DNA from: an uncultured Clostridia bacterium
GTDB lineage: Bacteria; Bacillota; Clostridia; Christensenellales; UBA1242
NCBI GenBank assembly: GCA_946496065.1
Contig: CAMMFF010000006.1
Location: 3,216 to 67,215 of the forward strand
Length of the DNA: 64,000 nucleotides
Direction: 5' to 3'
A program made the position numbers and the translations under genes. Below are positions 2,456 to 62,507 of the stretch, piece after piece (position 1 is the stretch's first letter; each line of letters begins with the position of its first letter). The notes beneath the pieces were generated by a model. The model did not search any database. It was given only the letters and a program-made list of their open reading frames with translations, and was not told the DNA's origin.

Positions 2456-3268
2456 ATGAGAAAGATTAATCTTATATTTCAAGAAATTCTGAAGTTTACA
2501 CTTATCTATCTTTTTTGCTTTGTTTGGATAAGATATTTCATAAAAAAATTGTGGCTGTCCGTTCTTCTCACATTCATACTGACAAGTCTAATCTATCTCA
2601 TCATTTTCTGCGTGCAGAGAAATAAGCAAAACAAAACCGGTTTGAAAATGAAAGAAAAAGAAGATGCTGAAAATATGTTCTTGTCCTTAGCCTGCCAAAC
2701 TGATCCAATGGAATTTTTCGTCAAACTTGCTTCAAAAAAGCACAAAAACATAACAAAACACAAGAAATACATTGTGATTAACCATGTCGAAGAAAAAGTG
2801 AAAACTCTGCTTTATGTTGATGTTTCTTTTGAAGGAATGTCAATCCCAAGATTTATGAATATCTACAACAGTGTCAAAAAAGAAAAAGCAACAAAAATTG
2901 TCATTTGTTGCAAGGAAATAACGGACAAAGGGCTCAGTGCATTTTGCCAAAATTTTAATGAAAAATTTTTGATTTTGGACATCTATGCCACCTATGAAAA
3001 ACTTTACAAATTCTATGATTGTTTCCCTGAAATAACCCATCAATATAAAAAAGAAAAGAAACTTGCATTCAAAGACTTTGTCGCCTATTCGTTCAATAAA
3101 AAAAGGACAAAGGGCTATCTGTTCTCCGCCATCATCCTTATCTTAAGCAGTTTGTTTATCAGAATGACAATCTATTATTGTGTCGTTGCATCGATATTGG
3201 TGATTTTTGCTCTTATTTCACAATTCAATCCATATTTCAATGTCAAGACCGAAAGCGAAATTCTATAA
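2456..3268 (+). CDS. Hypothetical membrane protein (2 N-terminal and 2 C-terminal TM helices, soluble middle domain)
   Basis: Long ORF with hydrophobic termini; ATG at 2456 chosen over TTG at 2438. Confidence 0.7.
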   Translation: MRKINLIFQEILKFTLIYLFCFVWIRYFIKKLWLSVLLTFILTSLIYLIIFCVQRNKQNKTGLKMKEKEDAENMFLSLACQTDPMEFFVKLASKKHKNITKHKKYIVINHVEEKVKTLLYVDVSFEGMSIPRFMNIYNSVKKEKATKIVICCKEITDKGLSAFCQNFNEKFLILDIYATYEKLYKFYDCFPEITHQYKKEKKLAFKDFVAYSFNKKRTKGYLFSAIILILSSLFIRMTIYYCVVASILVIFALISQFNPYFNVKTESEIL

Positions 3269-36347: not shown

Positions 36348-37535
36348 TTATTCTTTATCGTTCAAATCTTGAATTTCGTCAAATTCGTTTTCAATCGGTT
36401 CAAGTTCTTCCAAATCGCTCATGTCAAAAGAACTGTCATCAGAAAGTTCTGTAAGTTCATAGTCAACATCTGTGTTGTCAACATCAGTCTTTGGCTTGAT
36501 GTAACTTTCAGGTTTAACATCAATTTTCCAGCCAGTAAGTTTTGCAGCAAGTCTGACATTTTGTCCTTGTTTTCCAATTGCAAGTGACAACTTGTCATCT
36601 GGAACAATAACTTGTGACATATTCAAACTGTCATTGGTTTCAACAGAAAGAACTTTTGCTGGTGAAAGTGCTCTTGCAATATATTCAAGTGGATCATCAG
36701 AATATTCCACAAGGTCAATCTTTTCGCCATTAAGTTCGTTCACAATAGTGTTGATTCTGTTTCCTCTGTTTCCAACACAAGCACCAATAGCATCAACATT
36801 TGGTCTGTCGGAATAAACAGCAACCTTTGCTCTATTTCCTGGGTCACGAGCAATGTTCTTGATCTTAACTTCACCACTGGCAATTTCAGGAACTTCCAAT
36901 TCAAACAATTTTCTAACAAATCCAATGTTGCTTCTTGAAACTTGAATTTGTGGTCCTTTGAAAGAGTCTTTAATTTTCTTTACATAAACCTTAACTCTGT
37001 CACCAACATTAAATTTGTCGCCAGGAATTTGGTCGTTTTTCATCATAACGCCTTCAGTGTTTGTTCCAGCAATTTGAACATAAACATTTTCATCATCAAC
37101 TCTTTTAACAATTGTTGTCAAAAGTTCGTCTTCTTTCTCTGACAATTCACTTATGGCATTTTGTCTTTCCATTTCTCTGAGTTTCTGCATAACAACCTGT
37201 TTTGCAGTTTGAGCAGCAATTCTTCCAAAATCTTTTGTTGATTCTTCAACTGCAACAATGTCACCAACTTTGTATGACTTCTTTTGTTGTCTTGCTTCTT
37301 CCAAAGAAATTTCTTTGTCAGGATCTTCAACTTCTGCAACAACAGTTTTGTATGAGAAAATTCTGATAGTATTTCTTTCTGGATAAAGTTTAACCATTGC
37401 TGATTTTGCTTCGCCATACATCTTCTTATAAGCGGAAGTCAACGCCGTTTCCAAAGTTTGAATGAAAACTTCTTTGTCAATTTTCTTTTCTGCCTCAAGT
37501 TCATCAAGAGCCTTGAAAAAATCTTTATTTACCAT
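36348..37535 (-). CDS. nusA: Transcription termination/antitermination factor NusA
   Basis: FGRIAAQTAKQV, LFELEVPEI and SLAIGK.GQNVRLA motifs. Confidence 0.98.
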   Translation of the reverse strand: MVNKDFFKALDELEAEKKIDKEVFIQTLETALTSAYKKMYGEAKSAMVKLYPERNTIRIFSYKTVVAEVEDPDKEISLEEARQQKKSYKVGDIVAVEESTKDFGRIAAQTAKQVVMQKLREMERQNAISELSEKEDELLTTIVKRVDDENVYVQIAGTNTEGVMMKNDQIPGDKFNVGDRVKVYVKKIKDSFKGPQIQVSRSNIGFVRKLFELEVPEIASGEVKIKNIARDPGNRAKVAVYSDRPNVDAIGACVGNRGNRINTIVNELNGEKIDLVEYSDDPLEYIARALSPAKVLSVETNDSLNMSQVIVPDDKLSLAIGKQGQNVRLAAKLTGWKIDVKPESYIKPKTDVDNTDVDYELTELSDDSSFDMSDLEELEPIENEFDEIQDLNDKE

Positions 37536-37550
37536 TTTTTATGTTTCTCC

Positions 37551-38009
37551 TTAAAATTTAATAACAAGTTTGATTGATGCAATTTTATCTCGGTCTAAAT
37601 TAATGCTTTCCTTATCAGTTTTGATAGTGACAGATTTTTCATCAAAACTTTCCAAAACTCCGGTAAACAATTTCTTCCCGTCCAGTTTTGCAAACAAAGT
37701 CACATCAACTTCATTTCCAATGTTTCTAGATAAATCTCTGTCAGTTTTGAGTGGTCTGTCAAGACCTGGTGAACTCACAACCAAAGTGTAAGGTTTGTCA
37801 TCTGTTGGATTGATTTCGTCAAGAATTGGGTCGATTTTTTTGTTTACAATTTCACAATCATCAACAGTAACGCCACCGTCTTTGTCAATTGTGAAAATCA
37901 AAGACATTCCCCCATTTTCTTTTTCGTAACTCACTTCAACAAGTTCATAACCCATTTCTTCAATAACAGGTCTGAGTTTCTCTTCGCAAATTTGTTTAAC
38001 TTTTGCCAT
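37551..38009 (-). CDS. rimP: Ribosome maturation factor RimP
   Basis: IDK.GGV..DDC and Y.L.VSSPGLDRPL motifs. Confidence 0.96.
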   Translation of the reverse strand: MAKVKQICEEKLRPVIEEMGYELVEVSYEKENGGMSLIFTIDKDGGVTVDDCEIVNKKIDPILDEINPTDDKPYTLVVSSPGLDRPLKTDRDLSRNIGNEVDVTLFAKLDGKKLFTGVLESFDEKSVTIKTDKESINLDRDKIASIKLVIKF

Positions 38010-38037
38010 TTAAACCTCCAAAATTGTCTACTTAACA

Positions 38038-38068
38038 CAAAGAGTGAGCAAAAATTTGCCCACTCCTT
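38038..38068 (-). promoter_or_regulatory. rimP-nusA leader hairpin (putative NusA-dependent attenuator)
   Basis: GGAGTGGGCAAATTTTTGCTCACTCTTT, matching the conserved Firmicute GAGTGGG..CCCACTCTTT leader; sigmaA-like TTGCAT..TATAAT upstream. Confidence 0.65.
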
Positions 38069-38179
38069 GTCAAGATATAAATATTATAACCTAAAAAAAC
38101 ATAAAATGCAAGACAATTTTACATAAATTTAAGAATTTTTAAGTCGATTAAATCAAAAAAACGGAAAAACAAATCAAGT

Positions 38180-39712
38180 TTAAACTTCATTAAGTTTCAA
38201 AAGAACTTGTGCAGTTGCAAAAGCATCATTCCAAGCCCTGTGTGCTCCTTCCAATGTAAGTCCCAAAGCCTTAACAACTGTTCCAAGATTAAACCTTGAA
38301 ATTTTAAGTCTTGAAACTCTTGCTTCATTCATTGTGTCGATGATTTCATTGTCAAAAACAAGTCCAACATTTTCGCCTTCTCTGCGAATGAATTTAATGT
38401 CAAAGCCAATTATGTTGTGTCCGCAAAGCACACAACCCTTTGAAAACTCATAGAAGTCTTTGATAACCAAATCAATCGGTGGAGCATCATCCAACATTTC
38501 GTCAGTTATCCCCGTCAAATTGATAACCTCATATGAAAGTTTTTTTGTCGGCTTGACGAAAGTAGAGAATTTCTCAATGATGTTTCCATTCTCAATCTTA
38601 ACCGCACCAAGTTCAATGATTTGGTCAGTTGCTGGGTCAAGTCCTGTGGTTTCAATGTCAAAAACAACAATCGTTCTGCCAATAATCTTTTTGTTATATT
38701 TGTCCACATGTTCAAACATCGTATCTTGTTCCATTGCAGTAAGTTTTTCAATTTGAACAACTGGTCCTTCATGCTTATATTCTTCTTTTGTTATTTCTTC
38801 ATTCCTTTGAACCTCAGTTGCCAGTGCAATCTTGTCAACATAAAGACAAAGTTTGTTCATTTGGTTGAATTTGACATCCCCATGAACCAAGACATACATA
38901 TACTCTTCAAGTGCGTCCATGTCTTTTTCATTTTTCTTTGAGCAGAAATAGATGCAATCCATTCTTCCCTTACCGTCAGCAATTTGGAAATTGTAATACG
39001 CCTTTGGTTCGCCAGCATGTTTGCCAGTCTTTCTGATAAATTCTTTCCTTTCAATTTTTTTGATGTAGCCAGCAACAATCACAGAGTTTTTTGGTGAGGT
39101 GATAAATGAAAGATATTCCGGTTTTGGAGTGATTCCACTTCCAATCACATCTTTGATGATTTCAACATTATATCTCTGTGCCACTTTGTATCTTGTCTTC
39201 ATTTCGACATTTTCAATGTCAACTTCGTCAATAAGATTTGGATTTTCAATCAGATTGATAACAAACTCAACCAAGAAATTATCCTTCAAGAATTTTGCAA
39301 GTTCGGAAGCTATCTTGTGTTCCCCAAAAAATTCAACCATTCTTGAACTCAATTCAATGTCAACGAGAACGTCAATTTCTGTGATTTTGATTGACACATT
39401 TTCATCATTGACATAAGTTGTGACAAGTTTATATTTGCTTTCAAAATAGTTCTGAATTGCCTTTCTAATCAACCTTTCTTCAAGAAAGACTCTCATAAAC
39501 TTGACTTTGAGTTGCATCTTTTCAAAATTCAAATTTTGTTTAAGCCAATTTGTGATTTCCTTCTTGTCCGAATCTGTAAGTTCTTTTGCTGTTGAAGGAT
39601 ATAAAAAAGTTATCGTGCAAATTCCCTCACGCTTCTTCACAACAACATCTTTCAGTTGAAGGTTTTCATATTTATCGCCAAATTCAGCGTTAAACTCTTG
39701 TTGAAAATTCAT
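38180..39712 (-). CDS. PolC-derived protein: N-terminal domain, OB fold and DEDDh 3'-5' exonuclease, without PHP or polymerase
   Basis: polC position between rseP and rimP; OB-like VIVAGYI...FQIADG...VLVHG; Exo motifs VFDIETTG, HN..GFD..FI, HRAWNDA; stop directly after Exo III. Confidence 0.85.
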   Translation of the reverse strand: MNFQQEFNAEFGDKYENLQLKDVVVKKREGICTITFLYPSTAKELTDSDKKEITNWLKQNLNFEKMQLKVKFMRVFLEERLIRKAIQNYFESKYKLVTTYVNDENVSIKITEIDVLVDIELSSRMVEFFGEHKIASELAKFLKDNFLVEFVINLIENPNLIDEVDIENVEMKTRYKVAQRYNVEIIKDVIGSGITPKPEYLSFITSPKNSVIVAGYIKKIERKEFIRKTGKHAGEPKAYYNFQIADGKGRMDCIYFCSKKNEKDMDALEEYMYVLVHGDVKFNQMNKLCLYVDKIALATEVQRNEEITKEEYKHEGPVVQIEKLTAMEQDTMFEHVDKYNKKIIGRTIVVFDIETTGLDPATDQIIELGAVKIENGNIIEKFSTFVKPTKKLSYEVINLTGITDEMLDDAPPIDLVIKDFYEFSKGCVLCGHNIIGFDIKFIRREGENVGLVFDNEIIDTMNEARVSRLKISRFNLGTVVKALGLTLEGAHRAWNDAFATAQVLLKLNEV

Positions 39713-39721
39713 AACATAATC

Positions 39722-39750
39722 ATTCTAGAATATAAACAAATTTTTGTCAA
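39722..39750 (-). promoter_or_regulatory. SigmaA promoter of the mini-PolC gene
   Basis: TTGACA-17bp-TAGAAT, 9 nt before ATG, no SD; rseP terminator at 39775-39797 lies upstream. Confidence 0.65.
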
Positions 39751-39796
39751 GCACAAAAAACTTCCATGCATGAAAAAAGCCTGACAGAGTCAGACT

Positions 39797-40903
39797 TTAA
39801 AGAACAAAGTGTAGAATGTCGACAATTATGACAAATGCGAAAAGAATACATATGCCGACAAAGTGTATCATGTTTTCCACTTTGCGGTTGATTGGTTTTC
39901 CTCTTATCCATTCAATTAATGTGAACAGAACATGAGAACCATCAAGCGCTGGGAACGGCAGCAAGTTGAAGACAGCCAAGTTTGCCGCAATAAGCGGAAT
40001 GAAAATCAAAAGATATGACAAACTTTGAGAAGCAAAAGTCGCAATCGTCGAGATTGTCGCAATTGTTCCGCCCATTTCAGTGATTGGAATTTGGAAAGTA
40101 ATAAGCATCCACAAACTCTTCAAAACAACCCAAGCAAAACCAAATGCCATTTCAAAAGAACGACAAAATCCCGACCAAGCATCATACACATAAGCAACCG
40201 TGCAAGGCTCTTCATCTTCAGAAGACTCAAGTCCAATCAAGCAATTGATGTAATCATTACCTGCTGAATCCTGAGCCATAACAGGATAAACCACAATTGT
40301 CAAATCAACCCAATCACCATCACGAGTTACTGACATTGTGAAAGTATATTTTTCAGCGTCAAGACCATTTTCTTCATAATAATCTTGTGCCAAAGACTTC
40401 TGTTCATTGACAAGAGTGACAAAATTTTCTCCAAAAGCAAAGTCAATTTTTTTGCTATTAATTTTTCTTATGACATCACCCTCTTCATATGGATTGACAT
40501 AAGTTGTTTGATCATACCTTGCAATCTGTGGAACGTCATAACCTATTGTGCACAGCAAAACCCAAGAAAAAATGATTGCAGTGATAAAGTTTGCAGTCAC
40601 ACCTGCAAGAAAAACCAGAATTCTTTTCCAAGGTTTTTGATTGTTGAATGCAGTTGGAGATTCAGACTCTTTCTCATCATCTTCTCCCTCAAAAGCACAG
40701 TATCCCCCAAGTGGGAAAATACGCAAAGAAAACTTTTCGCCAGTCTTTTTGCTTGTATGAGTAAAAATTGGAAAACCAAATCCAATAGAAAATTCTGTTA
40801 TCTTGAACTTGAGAATTTTGCCAACCACATAGTGACCAAATTCATGGATAAGCACCATAAACAGCAAAATCACAATAGCAAGTATAATGTACCAAAAAAT
40901 CAT
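39797..40903 (-). CDS. rseP: RseP/RasP M50 intramembrane metalloprotease
   Basis: HEFGH, FSIGFG, PLGGY and NLLPFPALDG motifs. Confidence 0.93.
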   Translation of the reverse strand: MIFWYIILAIVILLFMVLIHEFGHYVVGKILKFKITEFSIGFGFPIFTHTSKKTGEKFSLRIFPLGGYCAFEGEDDEKESESPTAFNNQKPWKRILVFLAGVTANFITAIIFSWVLLCTIGYDVPQIARYDQTTYVNPYEEGDVIRKINSKKIDFAFGENFVTLVNEQKSLAQDYYEENGLDAEKYTFTMSVTRDGDWVDLTIVVYPVMAQDSAGNDYINCLIGLESSEDEEPCTVAYVYDAWSGFCRSFEMAFGFAWVVLKSLWMLITFQIPITEMGGTIATISTIATFASQSLSYLLIFIPLIAANLAVFNLLPFPALDGSHVLFTLIEWIRGKPINRKVENMIHFVGICILFAFVIIVDILHFVL

Positions 40904-43622: not shown

Positions 43623-45578
43623 TTATCTTTCAAAAGTAAACAAAGTTGTATTTTCACCAAAATCTAATTTGTTGACCTCTTCATCAAGCTTTCTTAATGG
43701 AGAAATCAAGTCGCCAACATTTTCAACAACTACACTATCCCCAAATAACTGTTGTTGTATGCTTGGTCTGGTATCAAAAGTTGTCCTGATTGTTTCATCA
43801 TAAGGTTTGACAATTTCCGATCTAAACAAATCAGTGATAGCTTCTTTGTCGTCAAAGCAAGAACTCAAATAGTCCATTGTTTTTTCAAAAAGTTGGTCAA
43901 CATTTGCATATTTCTTTCCAAGTTTAAATCTTTTTTGTTCATAAGTGTTTCTCAGAAGATTTAACATATCTTCAATTTTTTTGCTCGTTTCTTTTTCTGT
44001 ACTTGTAACATTAAAATGACACACATCTCTTCCTGCAATCAAGAATCTCTTATCATGCAATTCTTGAATATCGTTAGCAAGCGACAAAACATATTCCTTT
44101 TTTTCTTTTTTTGAAATATAATCATCTTTCAAAATCTTTGGCAAATATCTAATCGTCTGTCCTGTTTTTCTAATGGCTTGTCTCAAAGATTTTTCTCCAT
44201 TGCTTATTCTTGTTTCTCTTGCTTTTATCAAATCTTCAATTTCAAACTCAGCTTCAAATTTTCCATCAAAGAAAATTTCTATAAATTTATGCAAACATTC
44301 TTTGTCGGACATATCTTCAACATCAATATCATGCATAACAATGTTGTTTTTCAACTTGTCAACAATAGCCTTAATATTGAAGTCGATGTTGCTTGCAAAC
44401 AAAGTTTTTCCAAACTCAAAAAATTTATCAAAATATTTTTCTTCTGGGGTCTCTGCATCCAATCTTTCAATTTCGCTTAAAAGAAGTGTAAAATGAGAAG
44501 ATTCCATTCCAATCATATAAGGATTCGAAGCCAAATATTTCATGATATCCGCCTGAGATTTTTTGCTCTTTACTTCCAAGGTTTTAATGTTTTTTATGGC
44601 ATTTCTTTCTATTTTGCTGTAAGGAATCTGATTCAAAATGGAAAGATTGATTGGTTCCTGAAAATAATTACTAAATTGTTCACTGTATGTTGGTGAAGTG
44701 AATTGGGCAACAACATTAATCAAATATTTTTCTTTCTTATACATATTTTGAGAATTAATAACAAGCAATGTTGAATTGTTTTTTAACCATTTTCTCAACA
44801 TGATTGTTCTATATTCCAAAAATGTTAAATTTGGATTTTCTTTTGAAACTTCTTTATATGCACTATCTAATTTGCGAGCCATTTTTCTTTGAATATAGTC
44901 AAAAGCATCTTGAATTCTGTCCGTTGACGTAACAAACAAAGAAGGATTAATTTTCAAAATATCAACAATTTCTTGTCTTTTAAATACACGATAACCTGAA
45001 TAATTATCATAGACTGTCAATTCTTGCATTTTATTGAAAATGTGTGGAAATTTGTATGCATACCCCTTTGCAATCAAAGATGAACACTTTTCAAAAATTT
45101 CTTTTGCTTCTTGAGTTGTCAAATCCAATGTTGTAACCAAACTGTCATAAATATTATCAAAATCACGAGTTGTATCGTAGTATTTTACAAAAGTTTCACT
45201 GTCTCTTTTCAAATTCCCATCTGTCAAAACTGTGTTATATAGAATTTTATATGTATTAATTCCTTTTGAAGAAGTTTGGTAGAAAAGCACATTGAGTCTG
45301 TCTCTCATATCCTCCAAACTCTCTTTATCAGAGAATTGTGAATAATCCAGTTTCGAGAAAAACACCTTTCCAACCTTTCTTTTCAATTTTTCATCTGCTT
45401 CATCAAGGAACTTGTCTAAATATGGATAAATTGTCTCCAACATGATAAACAACCTTCTCTTATCTTCTGTTTTCTTGAATTTATCATGTATCATCTTCTC
45501 TGTTTCAACTTCCGATAAAGCAAAATATTTTTTTACATCATCGAAGAATTTTTCTCTTTTTTCTTCTATAACCATCAT
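43623..45578 (-). CDS. 651-aa helical orphan protein with mTERF-like repeats
   Basis: Long ORF; own TTGACA-17-TATAAT promoter (45595-45623), GGGGG RBS and terminator (43601-43623); repeats such as EIVDILKINPSLFVTSTDRI. Confidence 0.6.
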   Translation of the reverse strand: MMVIEEKREKFFDDVKKYFALSEVETEKMIHDKFKKTEDKRRLFIMLETIYPYLDKFLDEADEKLKRKVGKVFFSKLDYSQFSDKESLEDMRDRLNVLFYQTSSKGINTYKILYNTVLTDGNLKRDSETFVKYYDTTRDFDNIYDSLVTTLDLTTQEAKEIFEKCSSLIAKGYAYKFPHIFNKMQELTVYDNYSGYRVFKRQEIVDILKINPSLFVTSTDRIQDAFDYIQRKMARKLDSAYKEVSKENPNLTFLEYRTIMLRKWLKNNSTLLVINSQNMYKKEKYLINVVAQFTSPTYSEQFSNYFQEPINLSILNQIPYSKIERNAIKNIKTLEVKSKKSQADIMKYLASNPYMIGMESSHFTLLLSEIERLDAETPEEKYFDKFFEFGKTLFASNIDFNIKAIVDKLKNNIVMHDIDVEDMSDKECLHKFIEIFFDGKFEAEFEIEDLIKARETRISNGEKSLRQAIRKTGQTIRYLPKILKDDYISKKEKKEYVLSLANDIQELHDKRFLIAGRDVCHFNVTSTEKETSKKIEDMLNLLRNTYEQKRFKLGKKYANVDQLFEKTMDYLSSCFDDKEAITDLFRSEIVKPYDETIRTTFDTRPSIQQQLFGDSVVVENVGDLISPLRKLDEEVNKLDFGENTTLFTFER

Positions 45579-59387: not shown

Positions 59388-62300
59388 TTAAATTTTCTTT
59401 GCAAACTTAACAATGATGAAACTGTCTCCAACCTCGACATTCTTTTCAATGTCAGGTTTTTCAATCTTTTCAACTGCACGAATAATCAAAACTTCTTGTT
59501 TGATTTTGTCCATATAATTGTAAAGCATCGTTGCAAGACTTTCGTCAGCAGTTTCAAAATATGCATAAATTCTGTCATCGATAGAAAAATCTGCTTCTTT
59601 TCTGAGCACTTGAAGCCCTCTGACAAATTCGCGATACAAACCTTCCAAAATCAAGTTTTCGTCAAGAGTGATGTCAAGCACAACAGTGTTGCCATTTTCA
59701 TGGGCAATCACAAAGTCGGTCTTAGGTTTTTTCTCCAAATTGAAAAGTTCACTGTCCAAATCTTTAAACTCTCCAACTGAAACTTTTCCATTTTTATAGT
59801 CCTGCATAACCTTCTTGTTTTCTTCATCAGAGAGTGACGCCAAAACGGTCTTCAATTTCTGAACTTCTCCTTTCAAAACTGCTCCTGCTTTTTTGAAGTT
59901 AACAGACAAATATTCATCATTAAACTTGCTGTCATCAACAACACATTCAAGTTCTTTGACATTCAATTCTTCTTTGATTATGTCTTCAAAATCAGAAAGC
60001 ACCGAAACAGTCTTGTCCCCACCTGCAACATACATAATGCGAAGAGGTTGTTTAACTTTGATTTGATTTTCATTTCTAAGTCTTTGAGCAGTTGACATGA
60101 TGTCTCTTGCAATGTTTGTTCTTTCCAAAATGTCGCCAAAATCTTCGTCATAAATCTTTGTTGGGAAACCACTGAGCATAATGCACTCAACTTCTTTCTT
60201 CTCAATTTCTCTGACCATATTTTGCCAAATATATTCTGTCACAAATGGAATGATTGGAGCCATCACCCTAATCATTGCATTGATTGCACTATACAAGCAC
60301 CAATACGCAGTCAACTGGTCATCTTTGTTTTCGCTTTTCCAGAATCTCTTACGATTGCTTCTGATATAGAAATTGGAAATGTCATCAACCAATTTTTCAA
60401 AATCACGAACAACAACAAACTGCTTGTCGTCGGCATAATTTTTGTCGCTGTTCTCAACAAATTTATTTATGCTCTGAATGAGCCATTTATCTGACACCAG
60501 CAAATTCTCTGACTTTGGTTTGAATCCTTCAAGAGCAGGATTGTCAATGCAAGCATAGGTATTGAAAAATGTGTAAATGTTCCAGAAAGCCAAAATCTTT
60601 CTTCTTGCTTCGTCAGTCAAAGTGAAACCAAATCTCATGTCATTGCTTGGACTTGAAGAAGAATAAAGATATCTCACAACATCCGCTCCAACCTTGTCAG
60701 CAACAATATCTGCTTCCAAAGAATTTCCACCACTCTTATGGAACTCTCCGCCGTGTTCGTCTTTGACATATTGATATGTTACAAGTTTTTTGTATGGAGC
60801 CTTTCCAGTGAGCACAACACTCATGATGAGAAGTGAATAGAACCAAAGTTTGATTTGTTCAATCATTTCGCAAACATAATCACTTGGGAAGTTTGCTTCA
60901 AAAAACTTTTTGTCAGTGAAATATTTTTTTGTTGAAAATGGAGTAATTCCCGCATCAAGCCAAACGTCTCCAACATCTGGAACACGAGAAACTTCTTCTC
61001 CACAATCACACTTGATTTTGATGTCATCAATCCATGGTCTGTGAATGTTTGGAAGTTTATCCACAAGCTCAGGACTGGTCGCTCTCTTTTTCAGTTCTTC
61101 AAGTGAACCAATAACGTGTACTTTGCCACATTTTTCACAAACATAGAAAGGAAGAGGAAGTCCATAGAAACGACTTCTTGAAATGTTCCAATCTCCCATG
61201 TTTTGGAGCCAGTCAATCATTCTCTTTTTGGCATATTCAGGTTTAAATTCAACATCTTCAATTGCCTTGAGAGCCATTGGTCTGATTTCATCAATTTTGA
61301 TAAACCAACCAGAAACCAATTTATACACCAAATCTGTCTTACATCTCCAGCAGAAAGGATATGAGTGTTTGTATTTGTGTGCATAGAGAAGTTTTCCATC
61401 TTCTTTCAAACGATTAACCACCAAATCAACAACATCAGTTGTCTTTTTGCCAGCAAGGAAACCTGTGTTTGAAAGCATAACTCCCTGCTCGTTGATTGGA
61501 CAAATCTCAGGAAGTCCCAATGCTTGTCCCAAATCAAAGTCCTCTGCACCACAACCTGGAGCAATGTGAACAACACAACTTCCTTCCACATTGTCAACTT
61601 CGTCCCAAGCAACAATTTTATGTGCAAAATTTTCTTCTGAAAGTTCTGGGAAACAAGTTTCATATTCAAGACCGACAAGTTCCGAACCCTTAAACTCTTT
61701 CAAAATTTTGACATCTTCTTTCAAAATTTTCAAGCGGTCTTTTCCAAGAACAAGTTTTTCTCCGTGAAAATCAACTTCAACATAGTCAAACTCTGGATTG
61801 ACAGCAAGAGCGACATTCGCAGCAAGAGTCCATGGAGTTGTTGTCCATGTAACCATTTTGAAATCTTTGTTTTTGACCGGAAGTCTAATGAAAACTGCAG
61901 TATGTTCCACTTCGTGATAAGAAGACGACATTTCGTGTTCTGACAAACTTGTTCCACAACGAGGACACCAAGCCATTGGTCTATTTTTCCTAATTATCCA
62001 ACCATGCTTGTCACATTCTTTCAAGAAATGCCAAATTGAAGTGATGTTTTCGTCAGTGTTGGTGTAATAACTGTTATCCCAATCCATCCACTGTCCCATA
62101 CGAATTGATTGGTTTGTGATTTCGTTACCAAAATATTTCACTCTTTCCATACACTTGTTTGTGAATTTATCAATTCCATATTGCACAATCTCAGGTTTTC
62201 CATTGAGTCCAAGTTCTTTTTCAACATTAACTTCCACCCAAAGGCCTTGTCCATCAAAGCCGTTTTGATATTGACAATCTTTGCCCTTGAGAGCATTGTA

Positions 62301-62507
62301 ACGAATTGTCAAATCTTTGAGTGTTCTTCCCCAAAAATGGTGAATCCCAAGACGGTTGTTTGCAGTTGCAGGACCATCAAGAAACTTAAATCTGTCATGT
62401 CCAGCATTTTTCTTTACCAACTTATGGAAACTGTCGTTTTCCTTCCAAAACTTCAAAATTCCTTTTTCTAATTCCACAAAATTTGGAACTGTAACTTCTT
62501 TTTTCAC
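59388..62507 (-). CDS. ileS: Isoleucine--tRNA ligase, type 2 (eukaryote-like)
   Basis: DGP..AN, WTTTPWTL, DWNISR, C-terminal EG..REFVR..Q.LRK; GTG start with GGAGG; upstream Ile T-box. Confidence 0.95.
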   Translation of the reverse strand: MKKEVTVPNFVELEKGILKFWKENDSFHKLVKKNAGHDRFKFLDGPATANNRLGIHHFWGRTLKDLTIRYNALKGKDCQYQNGFDGQGLWVEVNVEKELGLNGKPEIVQYGIDKFTNKCMERVKYFGNEITNQSIRMGQWMDWDNSYYTNTDENITSIWHFLKECDKHGWIIRKNRPMAWCPRCGTSLSEHEMSSSYHEVEHTAVFIRLPVKNKDFKMVTWTTTPWTLAANVALAVNPEFDYVEVDFHGEKLVLGKDRLKILKEDVKILKEFKGSELVGLEYETCFPELSEENFAHKIVAWDEVDNVEGSCVVHIAPGCGAEDFDLGQALGLPEICPINEQGVMLSNTGFLAGKKTTDVVDLVVNRLKEDGKLLYAHKYKHSYPFCWRCKTDLVYKLVSGWFIKIDEIRPMALKAIEDVEFKPEYAKKRMIDWLQNMGDWNISRSRFYGLPLPFYVCEKCGKVHVIGSLEELKKRATSPELVDKLPNIHRPWIDDIKIKCDCGEEVSRVPDVGDVWLDAGITPFSTKKYFTDKKFFEANFPSDYVCEMIEQIKLWFYSLLIMSVVLTGKAPYKKLVTYQYVKDEHGGEFHKSGGNSLEADIVADKVGADVVRYLYSSSSPSNDMRFGFTLTDEARRKILAFWNIYTFFNTYACIDNPALEGFKPKSENLLVSDKWLIQSINKFVENSDKNYADDKQFVVVRDFEKLVDDISNFYIRSNRKRFWKSENKDDQLTAYWCLYSAINAMIRVMAPIIPFVTEYIWQNMVREIEKKEVECIMLSGFPTKIYDEDFGDILERTNIARDIMSTAQRLRNENQIKVKQPLRIMYVAGGDKTVSVLSDFEDIIKEELNVKELECVVDDSKFNDEYLSVNFKKAGAVLKGEVQKLKTVLASLSDEENKKVMQDYKNGKVSVGEFKDLDSELFNLEKKPKTDFVIAHENGNTVVLDITLDENLILEGLYREFVRGLQVLRKEADFSIDDRIYAYFETADESLATMLYNYMDKIKQEVLIIRAVEKIEKPDIEKNVEVGDSFIIVKFAKKI

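Follow-up and report, generated by a model that had tools for sequence, protein, structure and literature searches.

The epsilon subunit of Escherichia coli has a clamp-binding motif adjacent to its exonuclease domain. For mycobacteria, a DnaQ is described that works alongside a DnaE1 whose PHP proofreader is active and does not bind it stably (PMC12926913), and in Bacillus subtilis the exonuclease of PolC is reported to proofread DnaE primer ends in trans (PMC5627055). PolC variants that do not have the exonuclease (Exo) insertion have been described from Clostridia and Negativicutes, and some Clostridia were reported in 2014 to have a single DnaE1, a system which the same source calls experimentally uncharacterised (PMC3919608). 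Here, another arrangement is presented from a stretch of 64,000 nucleotides, the whole of which is called the window (positions 3,216 to 67,215 of contig CAMMFF010000006.1, assembly GCA_946496065.1, an uncultured Clostridia bacterium), where the slot of polC is occupied by an intact gene on the minus strand encoding a protein of 510 amino acids, referred to as mini-PolC. It is near certain that mini-PolC is a conserved and selected PolC without polymerase in a clade that has only DnaE1. The gene and the parts of its product are the following.

38180-39712, minus strand: mini-PolC gene, a polymerase-less PolC derivative; intact open reading frame (ORF) of 510 amino acids plus stop.
39233-39712, minus strand: N-terminal domain, residues 1-160, two alpha/beta subdomains; placed by hhalign homology to the PolC N-terminal region and by the AlphaFold2 (AF2) model.
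38813-39166, minus strand: OB-fold domain, residues 183-300; placed by a PF01336 match, AF2 beta strands and alignment with the OB fold of full-length PolC.
38675-38812, minus strand: linker, residues 301-346, of low AF2 confidence by the predicted local distance difference test (pLDDT) and probably disordered; it occupies the place of the N-terminal half of PHP (PHP-N).
38714-38728, minus strand: QDTMF, residues 329-333, candidate beta-clamp-binding motif, conserved as Qxx[LMI]F.
38183-38674, minus strand: DEDDh 3'-5' exonuclease domain, residues 347-510, with an RNase_T match; the protein terminates directly after this domain.

The original prediction, made from the letters of the stretch, had placed an intact ORF of 510 amino acids between rseP and rimP and had quoted its DEDDh motifs and QDTMF. 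All of these were found at their places, on the minus strand, which had not been stated. The catalytic residues lie in VFDIETTG (D352, E354), GHNIIGFD (D438) and AHRAWND (H491, D496). In the Pfam scan, RNase_T (PF00929) spans residues 349-504 (E 8.3e-35, 121.2 bits, cut-off 24) and the OB fold (PF01336) residues 211-295 (27.9 bits, cut-off 27), while neither PHP (PF02811) nor a Pol III alpha domain (PF07733, PF17657) was matched, as expected from the predicted domain composition; the Pfam models for the NI/NII regions of PolC gave no match at E<=0.01. The top NCBIfam model was the PolC model NF001688, with 180.7 bits, far under its cut-off of 873, and TIGR01405 scored 163.1 against a cut-off of 1043, so that the PolC equivalog cut-off is missed; TIGR00573 scored 110.5 bits, above its cut-off of 71.5. 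The alignment to NF001688 sets the exonuclease on PolC positions 412-584 of 1445, and among PDB sequences it is the PolC exonuclease domain 2p1j that matches best (1.2e-54), above DinG, DnaQ and E. coli epsilon.

The whole-protein AF2 model, built on a 47-sequence alignment, has a mean pLDDT of 85.2 and a predicted template modelling score (pTM) of 0.42 and falls into four parts. Its N-terminal domain of two alpha/beta subdomains spans residues 1-156, and a model of residues 1-170 reached a pLDDT of 89 with a pTM of 0.75. The OB region, residues 183-300, is made of beta strands with a pLDDT of 86-94, and the linker drops to 46-67 per 10-residue block over residues 301-340, with values below 50 at 303-313 and 327-330. 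The top PDB fold match of the model is PolC of Enterococcus faecium (9qpc_A, 389 columns, E 8.6e-20), and DnaQ (8h2f) and epsilon (2ido) are matched in fold with template modelling (TM) scores, normalised to the target, of 0.85-0.88. The protein ends 3-4 residues past the last exonuclease helix, without the PHP-binding tail of an epsilon subunit.

Comparison with ten full-length PolCs (1397-1455 amino acids) from other families of the same order showed how mini-PolC relates to the full-length form. In the alignment it extends over the N-terminal region, the OB fold and the exonuclease of these PolCs and then ends; about 90 amino acids of PHP-N are exchanged for a linker of about 45 residues and the C-terminal half (PHP-C) is absent, in line with the predicted removal of both PHP halves. 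The N-terminal region, which had been called PolC-like, was compared by hhalign as the first 190 residues against the ten PolC N-termini, giving a probability of 93% (E 3.3e-7, 147 columns, 12% identity), a likeness that is weak but real at the profile level. In an Atlas feature search with residues 1-300, the nearest clusters carry PF14480/PF11490 on 10-53% of their members, which is taken as a lead only and not as evidence. The surroundings of the gene point the same way, the relevant features being these.

39722-39750, minus strand: promoter-like site TTGACA-17-TAGAAT, found by consensus scan with 11/12 matches.
39797-40903, minus strand: rseP (M50 peptidase), lying upstream and marking the slot of polC; Pfam Peptidase_M50, 4.5e-58.
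37551-38009, minus strand: rimP, the downstream neighbour; Pfam RimP_N and DUF150_C.
36348-37535, minus strand: nusA, next after rimP by locus gene order.

On the same strand uppS, cdsA and rseP lie upstream and rimP, nusA and infB downstream, and the order rseP-X-rimP-nusA-ylxR is common to the loci of mini-PolC and of full-length PolC: rseP precedes the gene at 28/29 mini loci and 9/10 full-length loci, and rimP follows it at 28/29 and, within the fetched stretch, at 6/10, respectively. No coding remnant was found in the 170-nucleotide gap between mini-PolC and rimP (38010-38179), where the original prediction had likewise seen no trace of a polymerase. In a tree of exonuclease domains with 43 rows, from which locus L041 and a PolC with degenerate DEDDh motifs (locus L087, genome G027) were left out, the 29 mini rows cluster together, among the exonuclease domains of clostridial PolCs, with a value of 92 in the Shimodaira-Hasegawa-like approximate likelihood ratio test (SH-aLRT). 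In a tree of NusA plus RseP with 23 rows (17 mini-bearing genomes and 6 with the full-length gene), the 17 stand on one side of a branch with support 100. A single truncation event would fit both trees, which are unrooted and drawn from a small sample.

Two observations on other PolCs of the order were made along with this comparison. The PolC at L087, from family f4, is of full length and has degenerate exonuclease motifs as judged by eye (SLRTTG for DxETTG, and no HxAxxD), so that its exonuclease is possibly inactive. In family f22 the PolC polymerase part was detected in 14/14 genomes and the exonuclease of the window matched 8/14 at E<=1e-8; these PolCs may be among the variants without the exonuclease that are reported for Clostridia in PMC3919608.

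The source genome (1.11 Mb in 14 contigs, 93% complete, 34% G+C) holds one match to Pol III alpha (PF07733), a DnaE of 1196 amino acids which passes the NCBIfam DnaE equivalog NF005298 (1441.7 bits, cut-off 1260). A stand-alone PHP partner, as expected of a split polC, was considered and rejected: the second PHP match of the genome is a generic phosphoesterase of 254 amino acids upstream of whiA and dnaE. Thus, the search of the rest of the genome, which had been proposed with the original prediction, gave no PolC polymerase half and left DnaE as the only C-family polymerase. The mini architecture is kept by 23 of 24 genomes of the same genus as a frame of 511-536 amino acids with 37-72% identity, the 24th frame being interrupted by a contig end, and several of these genomes are 99-100% complete. 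Full-length polC stands at this site in relatives of other families, five of five such PolC-bearing relatives having DnaE plus PolC, and all five mini genomes examined from other families have a single Pol III alpha match.

To survey the distribution, 300 genomes sampled from the order were searched at E<=1e-60 with a query of 797 amino acids, the polymerase part of PolC from a relative. This part was detected in 147 genomes and undetected in 153, and the split follows families: among the first 30, it was found in no genome of f1, f8, f11, f13, f16, f17, f19, f21, f23, f24, f26 and f29 (97 genomes together) and in every genome, or nearly every one, of the remaining 18. Mini-PolC is matched at E<=1e-8 in 89 of those 97 genomes, and the mini rows listed in the survey have frames of about 500-610 amino acids, bar a few that are cut or longer. 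In a profile search of 1.84 billion representatives, the best 150 matches all had E<=1e-105 and lengths of 243-589 amino acids; 143 of them are at least 480 amino acids long (480-589, median 518), by which at least 143 clusters at 50% identity carry the mini-PolC architecture, and the seven shorter ones were excluded from the motif counts given below. Members of the clade seem to replicate their DNA with DnaE alone.

Compared with two close orthologs, mini-PolC has ratios of nonsynonymous to synonymous substitution rates (dN/dS) of 0.076 and 0.068. Among its domains the exonuclease has the lowest values (0.04-0.05), followed by the OB fold (0.06), the N-terminal domain (0.08-0.13) and the linker (0.10-0.24). 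Together with its conservation across relatives, these values bear out the prediction that the gene is not simply decaying. In two metatranscriptome runs of one study, 79% and 59% of 147 sampled words of the gene were recovered, with the proviso that RNA libraries can carry DNA. Public annotation names the orthologs either "PolC-type DNA polymerase III" or "ribonuclease H-like domain-containing protein", and both names are misleading.

The conservation of the exonuclease is strict. D352, E354, D438, H491 and D496 are invariant in 29/29 relatives, and the same five DEDDh residues in 143/143 representatives, a biased set in that it was chosen by score with a profile containing the exonuclease; six of the 143 fall outside the strict D.ETTG pattern, with the D and E still present in the alignment of all 143. 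The motif QDTMF had been predicted to bind the beta clamp. The strict form Qxx[LMI]F occurs in the linker of 27/29 relatives and only three times elsewhere in those proteins. Among the 143 representatives 97 have the strict motif and 29 more a relaxed pattern, the strict one preceding DxETTG by 20-24 residues in 80 of these 97. By column, Q occurs in 136, position 332 is hydrophobic in 141 and position 333 is F in 114, where most other linker columns are conserved below 50%. A second conserved patch of the linker, V-F-P-x-P-Y with P in 94%, aligns with VVQAFPDAY in the PHP domain of PolC, from which it may be left over.

The position of the motif is informative when compared with full-length PolC. 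A QLSLF-like motif lies within about 10 residues of the C-terminus in 6/10 full-length PolCs of the order, and none of the ten has Qxx[LMI]F between the OB fold and the exonuclease. As judged from these alignments, the ancestral C-terminal clamp motif disappeared from mini-PolC together with the polymerase, and a motif now stands in a new position, beside the exonuclease, which is hard to explain unless clamp binding matters. A complex of two DnaN chains with residues 296-510 was predicted with interaction prediction scores from aligned errors (ipSAE) of 0.47, 0.48 and 0.49, the best of three controls reaching 0.01; the partner had a pLDDT of 80 or more, and 91% or more of the contacts were shared between the runs, with no interface given in the output. 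The mark applied was reached by 58/80 solved complexes and by 2/110 mismatched pairs in calibration, and scores of 0.60 or below were given by only 7 of the 80 solved complexes and by both of the passing mismatches. The predicted motif is upheld as a conserved element of a disordered linker. Its binding to the clamp received a weak in silico pass (0.48), and tethering of mini-PolC to the clamp is likely.

These results show mini-PolC as a descendant of polC without polymerase, and they lead, by a slight preference, to the view that it acts in trans, as a clamp-tethered exonuclease, for the DnaE1 replicase. Both PHP halves and the entire polymerase would have been lost from polC in situ, in the common ancestor of a large clade of Clostridia from the gut. 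The N-terminal domain, OB fold and DEDDh exonuclease would have stayed, connected by a short disordered linker, and this linker would have acquired the beta-clamp-binding motif Qxx[L/M/I]F. DnaE1, as the sole C-family polymerase, would then copy both strands; mini-PolC would dock through its linker motif in one cleft of the DnaN dimer, and its exonuclease would remove mismatched 3' ends of DnaE1 in trans, in addition to the PHP site of DnaE1 itself; the mycobacterial DnaQ and the trans-proofreading of B. subtilis are precedents. DnaE1 has an internal QMSFF-like motif of its own near residue 950, seen by eye. The N-terminal/OB module may contribute contacts with single-stranded DNA (ssDNA) or with the replisome. 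That mini-PolC binds the clamp and works on the products of DnaE1, and what its N-terminal/OB part does, is all inferred.

Several observations weigh against a trans-acting proofreader. All nine residues of the PHP active site of DnaE1 are kept in 6/6 mini genomes and 5/5 PolC-bearing relatives, as read by eye from the alignment, and the 2026 survey reports the same state of this site for clostridial DnaE1 (PMC12926913). With this site intact DnaE1 probably proofreads by itself, and therefore a second proofreader of the epsilon type is not obviously needed beside it. The genome also encodes a second DEDDh exonuclease, of 430 amino acids (contig C5:24869-26158; L111:170-1459, minus strand), that could equally proofread; it has a long C-terminal extension with a BRCT-like stretch seen by eye, its nearest models are those of DnaQ and of the PolC exonuclease, and it may serve as a further proofreader or as a repair nuclease. 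Other routes to fidelity exist, MutS, MutL and Pol I being present. As to the clamp, the strict motif is missing in 2/29 relatives, 11/143 representatives do not have even the relaxed one and 6 more are unscorable, and the DnaN complex prediction, being only a weak pass, may reflect memory of solved clamp-peptide complexes. Lastly, in family f26, all five aligned copies are without any DEDDh residue and without the clamp motif.

Family f26 deserves closer description. The PolC polymerase part was found in 0/14 of its genomes, and 6/6 genomes examined have a frame of 495-541 amino acids that matches only the N-terminal two thirds of the mini-PolC profile. The five aligned copies (L114-L118, from G085, G204, G239, G113 and G163) are located between rseP and rimP. 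As these copies, a pseudo-exonuclease form, persist without DEDDh residues, exonuclease activity is not what maintains the protein in every lineage, and the joint loss of exonuclease and clamp motif suggests that the two behave as one module, separable from the N-terminal/OB part, which probably has a role of its own.

This family is the main ground for an alternative explanation, in which the conserved job of mini-PolC is structural: the N-terminal/OB part would be a replisome adaptor or an ssDNA-binding subunit, docking for example on DnaE1, the clamp loader or the template strand, and the exonuclease a losable accessory. An adaptor had been named in the original prediction only as an alternative, and the f26 orthologs of about 500 amino acids at the same locus, with catalytic residues and motif gone in 5/5, do point to one. 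Purifying selection on the N-terminal domain and OB fold in the lineage of the window (dN/dS 0.06-0.13) and the separability of the two modules are also in its favour. Outside f26, however, the catalytic residues are invariant in both sets of relatives (29/29 and 143/143), and it is the exonuclease that has the lowest dN/dS (0.04-0.05). Moreover, the N-terminal domain is without a known partner. It had been predicted to resemble domain V of tau, a likeness drawn for PolC NI/NII in a figure legend of PMC12926913, and this was not reproduced: a Foldseek search with the N-terminal model gave generic alpha/beta tandems as best matches (E 2.9e-4, TM <=0.45) and no tau entry among the 43 matches listed (ranks to 50), and hhalign of the N-terminal domain against C-terminal pieces of DnaX returned a probability of 0.4%. 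For PolC itself, the N-terminal domain is described as having no known function and as not resolved in new cryo-electron microscopy structures (PMC12592400). A conserved job that is structural is regarded as rather unlikely, but a separate, non-catalytic role of the N-terminal/OB part is to be taken seriously, as a rival of the proofreader or as its complement.

Less probable still is that mini-PolC is a clamp-bound exonuclease of repair or processing, engaged in mismatch-repair excision, in 3' flap trimming or on Okazaki or repair intermediates. Many clamp-binding proteins are repair factors, and a clamp motif by itself leaves the transaction that is served unspecified; the intact proofreading site in DnaE1 PHP and the presence of MutS and MutL also agree with such a role. 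Nevertheless, the protein descends from a replicative polymerase and retains its locus, N-terminal domain and OB fold, no repair genes adjoin it, and the exonuclease of PolC is reported to act in trans on what DnaE has synthesised (PMC5627055).

That the gene is a remnant in decay, an artefact of assembly or half of a split polC, as the 14-contig draft at 93% completeness and the label "PolC-type DNA polymerase III" given by NCBI to one ortholog might suggest, is hardly credible with the architecture present in 23/24 genus genomes and many other families under a dN/dS of about 0.07, with no polymerase part in 153/300 genomes of the order, family by family, and with one PF07733 match in the genome beside a second PHP that is a 254-residue phosphoesterase.

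Returning to the clamp-tethered exonuclease, its extension to the order is put forward tentatively, with rather more doubt than confidence: in about half of this order of gut Clostridia, PolC would now be a polymerase-less subunit that combines an epsilon-like trans-proofreader with an indispensable, non-catalytic role of the N-terminal/OB part. The clade is in any case a natural experiment which indicates that DnaE1 alone can replace the pair of PolC and DnaE1 in Clostridia, and it reveals what selection retains of PolC once polymerisation is dispensable, namely N-terminal domain, OB fold and exonuclease. A protein of about 500 amino acids that isolates the PolC N-terminal domain is also an easier object of study, and a stand-alone DEDDh proofreader on the sliding clamp would have been reached here by a second, independent route. 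If the two-module reading is true, mini-PolC would replay in nature the way in which a separate proofreading subunit can arise, and it would offer a first handle on what the N-terminal domain of PolC does. Ibezapolstat and other PolC-directed antibiotics have the PolC polymerase as their target (PMC12592400, PMC11963600), and commensals without this polymerase should not be hit through it.

Regarding expression, the promoter predicted upstream of the gene was recovered as the TTGACA-17-TAGAAT site listed above. It stops 10 nucleotides ahead of the ATG and no Shine-Dalgarno sequence follows it, so that the mRNA of mini-PolC looks leaderless. By eye, pairs of -35 and -10 elements (TTGACA-like and TAnAAT) ending 6-10 nucleotides before the ATG are present in 17/17 of the genus loci listed (39713-39790 in the window), which suggests leaderless transcripts in this genus; four mini-PolC loci of other families have a Shine-Dalgarno sequence instead. 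The 16 promoter-like sites in 3.6 kb are no excess over shuffled sequences (10.7, standard deviation 3.7), and the weight of this site comes only from its position and its conservation.

In the same region, a short hairpin with a T-run was seen by eye after the rseP stop, which the terminator scan did not list. The rimP leader (38010-38179, minus strand, 170 nucleotides) has, again by eye, a promoter-like TTGCAT...TATAAT and a GC-rich hairpin followed by a T-rich stretch; it matched no Rfam family, its single match being at chance level (E 0.087), and over the whole window no Rfam family reached its gathering score. Elsewhere in the window, an ORF of 651 amino acids (43623-45578, minus strand) has no Pfam family at E<=0.01, and 59388-62507 (minus strand) encodes an isoleucine-tRNA ligase of 1039 amino acids with a DUF5915 C-terminal domain. 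The latter scores 568-587 bits with the MupA/MupB models, far below their cut-off of 1900, and is consequently regarded as an ordinary ileS of that type and not called a resistance gene.

An observation of another kind concerns dnaX, which lies outside the window (genome G000, contig C1:251726-253165; L103:727-2165). The gene stops after 367 codons, directly behind a run of nine A (L103:1818-1826, ...GTA AAA AAA AAC TGA), and a C-terminal DnaX domain of about 110 amino acids continues in the -1 frame past the stop. The A run, the adjacent stop and the -1-frame continuation are conserved in 7/7 genomes examined from the genus, with flanks diverging to 69% amino acid identity. In one metatranscriptome contig (2499 nucleotides) the run is longer by three A, this being the only difference, and an independent DNA contig has no extra A. 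The runs X18 and X5 yielded only pieces of about 35 nucleotides that stem from dnaX of other organisms, and no weight is given to their lack of cover. From its sequence, the site looks like conserved transcriptional slippage or -1 frameshifting that would yield a tau-like long form; this would be the reverse of the logic of E. coli dnaX. DnaX frames are 367-405 amino acids long in 25/26 genomes of the genus, and a shortened DnaX was considered as a correlate of mini-PolC and rejected, since a single frame of 502-592 amino acids is found in 4/5 mini genomes of other families.

With regard to novelty, a replisome with DnaE alone had been predicted to be unusual for a Firmicute; it is not new for Clostridia, DnaE1-only members of which were already reported in PMC3919608. 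The type of replisome is therefore known, and what appears to be new is a PolC-derived protein made of N-terminal domain, OB fold and exonuclease without polymerase. In the portions of the literature covered, supplements being outside the scope, no description of a polymerase-less PolC was found; both surveys dropped fragments without a polymerase domain, and the one of 2026 (PMC12926913) used complete genomes only.

Compared with full-length PolC, as seen in 9qpc of E. faecium and in the PolCs of the order, mini-PolC has the same N-terminal domain, OB fold and DEDDh exonuclease in the same rseP-polC-rimP-nusA slot, but it is without PHP halves, palm, thumb and fingers, with 510 amino acids against 1397-1455. 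Both have a clamp motif, in the OB-exonuclease linker for mini-PolC and at the C-terminus for PolC. The PolC variants without exonuclease are the reciprocal case, in which the polymerase was kept and the exonuclease lost, and in those Clostridia, according to PMC3919608, PolC is still paired with DnaE1. In the trans-proofreading of B. subtilis the same exonuclease domain is at work, there within a full replicating polymerase, whereas here only the non-polymerase parts are left and DnaE1 is the sole replicase. The non-canonical DnaQ of mycobacteria is also an extra proofreader beside a PHP-active DnaE1, as is proposed for mini-PolC, but it belongs to an unrelated lineage and architecture and does not have the PolC N-terminal/OB module. 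With E. coli epsilon, finally, mini-PolC shares the state of a stand-alone DEDDh exonuclease (PDB 1j53, match at 2.5e-22) and, by inference, the service to a DnaE1-type polymerase. Epsilon binds the PHP domain of alpha through its C-terminal tail, whereas mini-PolC ends after the exonuclease and has an N-terminal domain and an OB fold in addition; the PHP site of E. coli alpha is inactive according to PMC12926913, whereas the DnaE1 of this genome keeps its own, and mini-PolC, unlike epsilon, has its ancestry in PolC.

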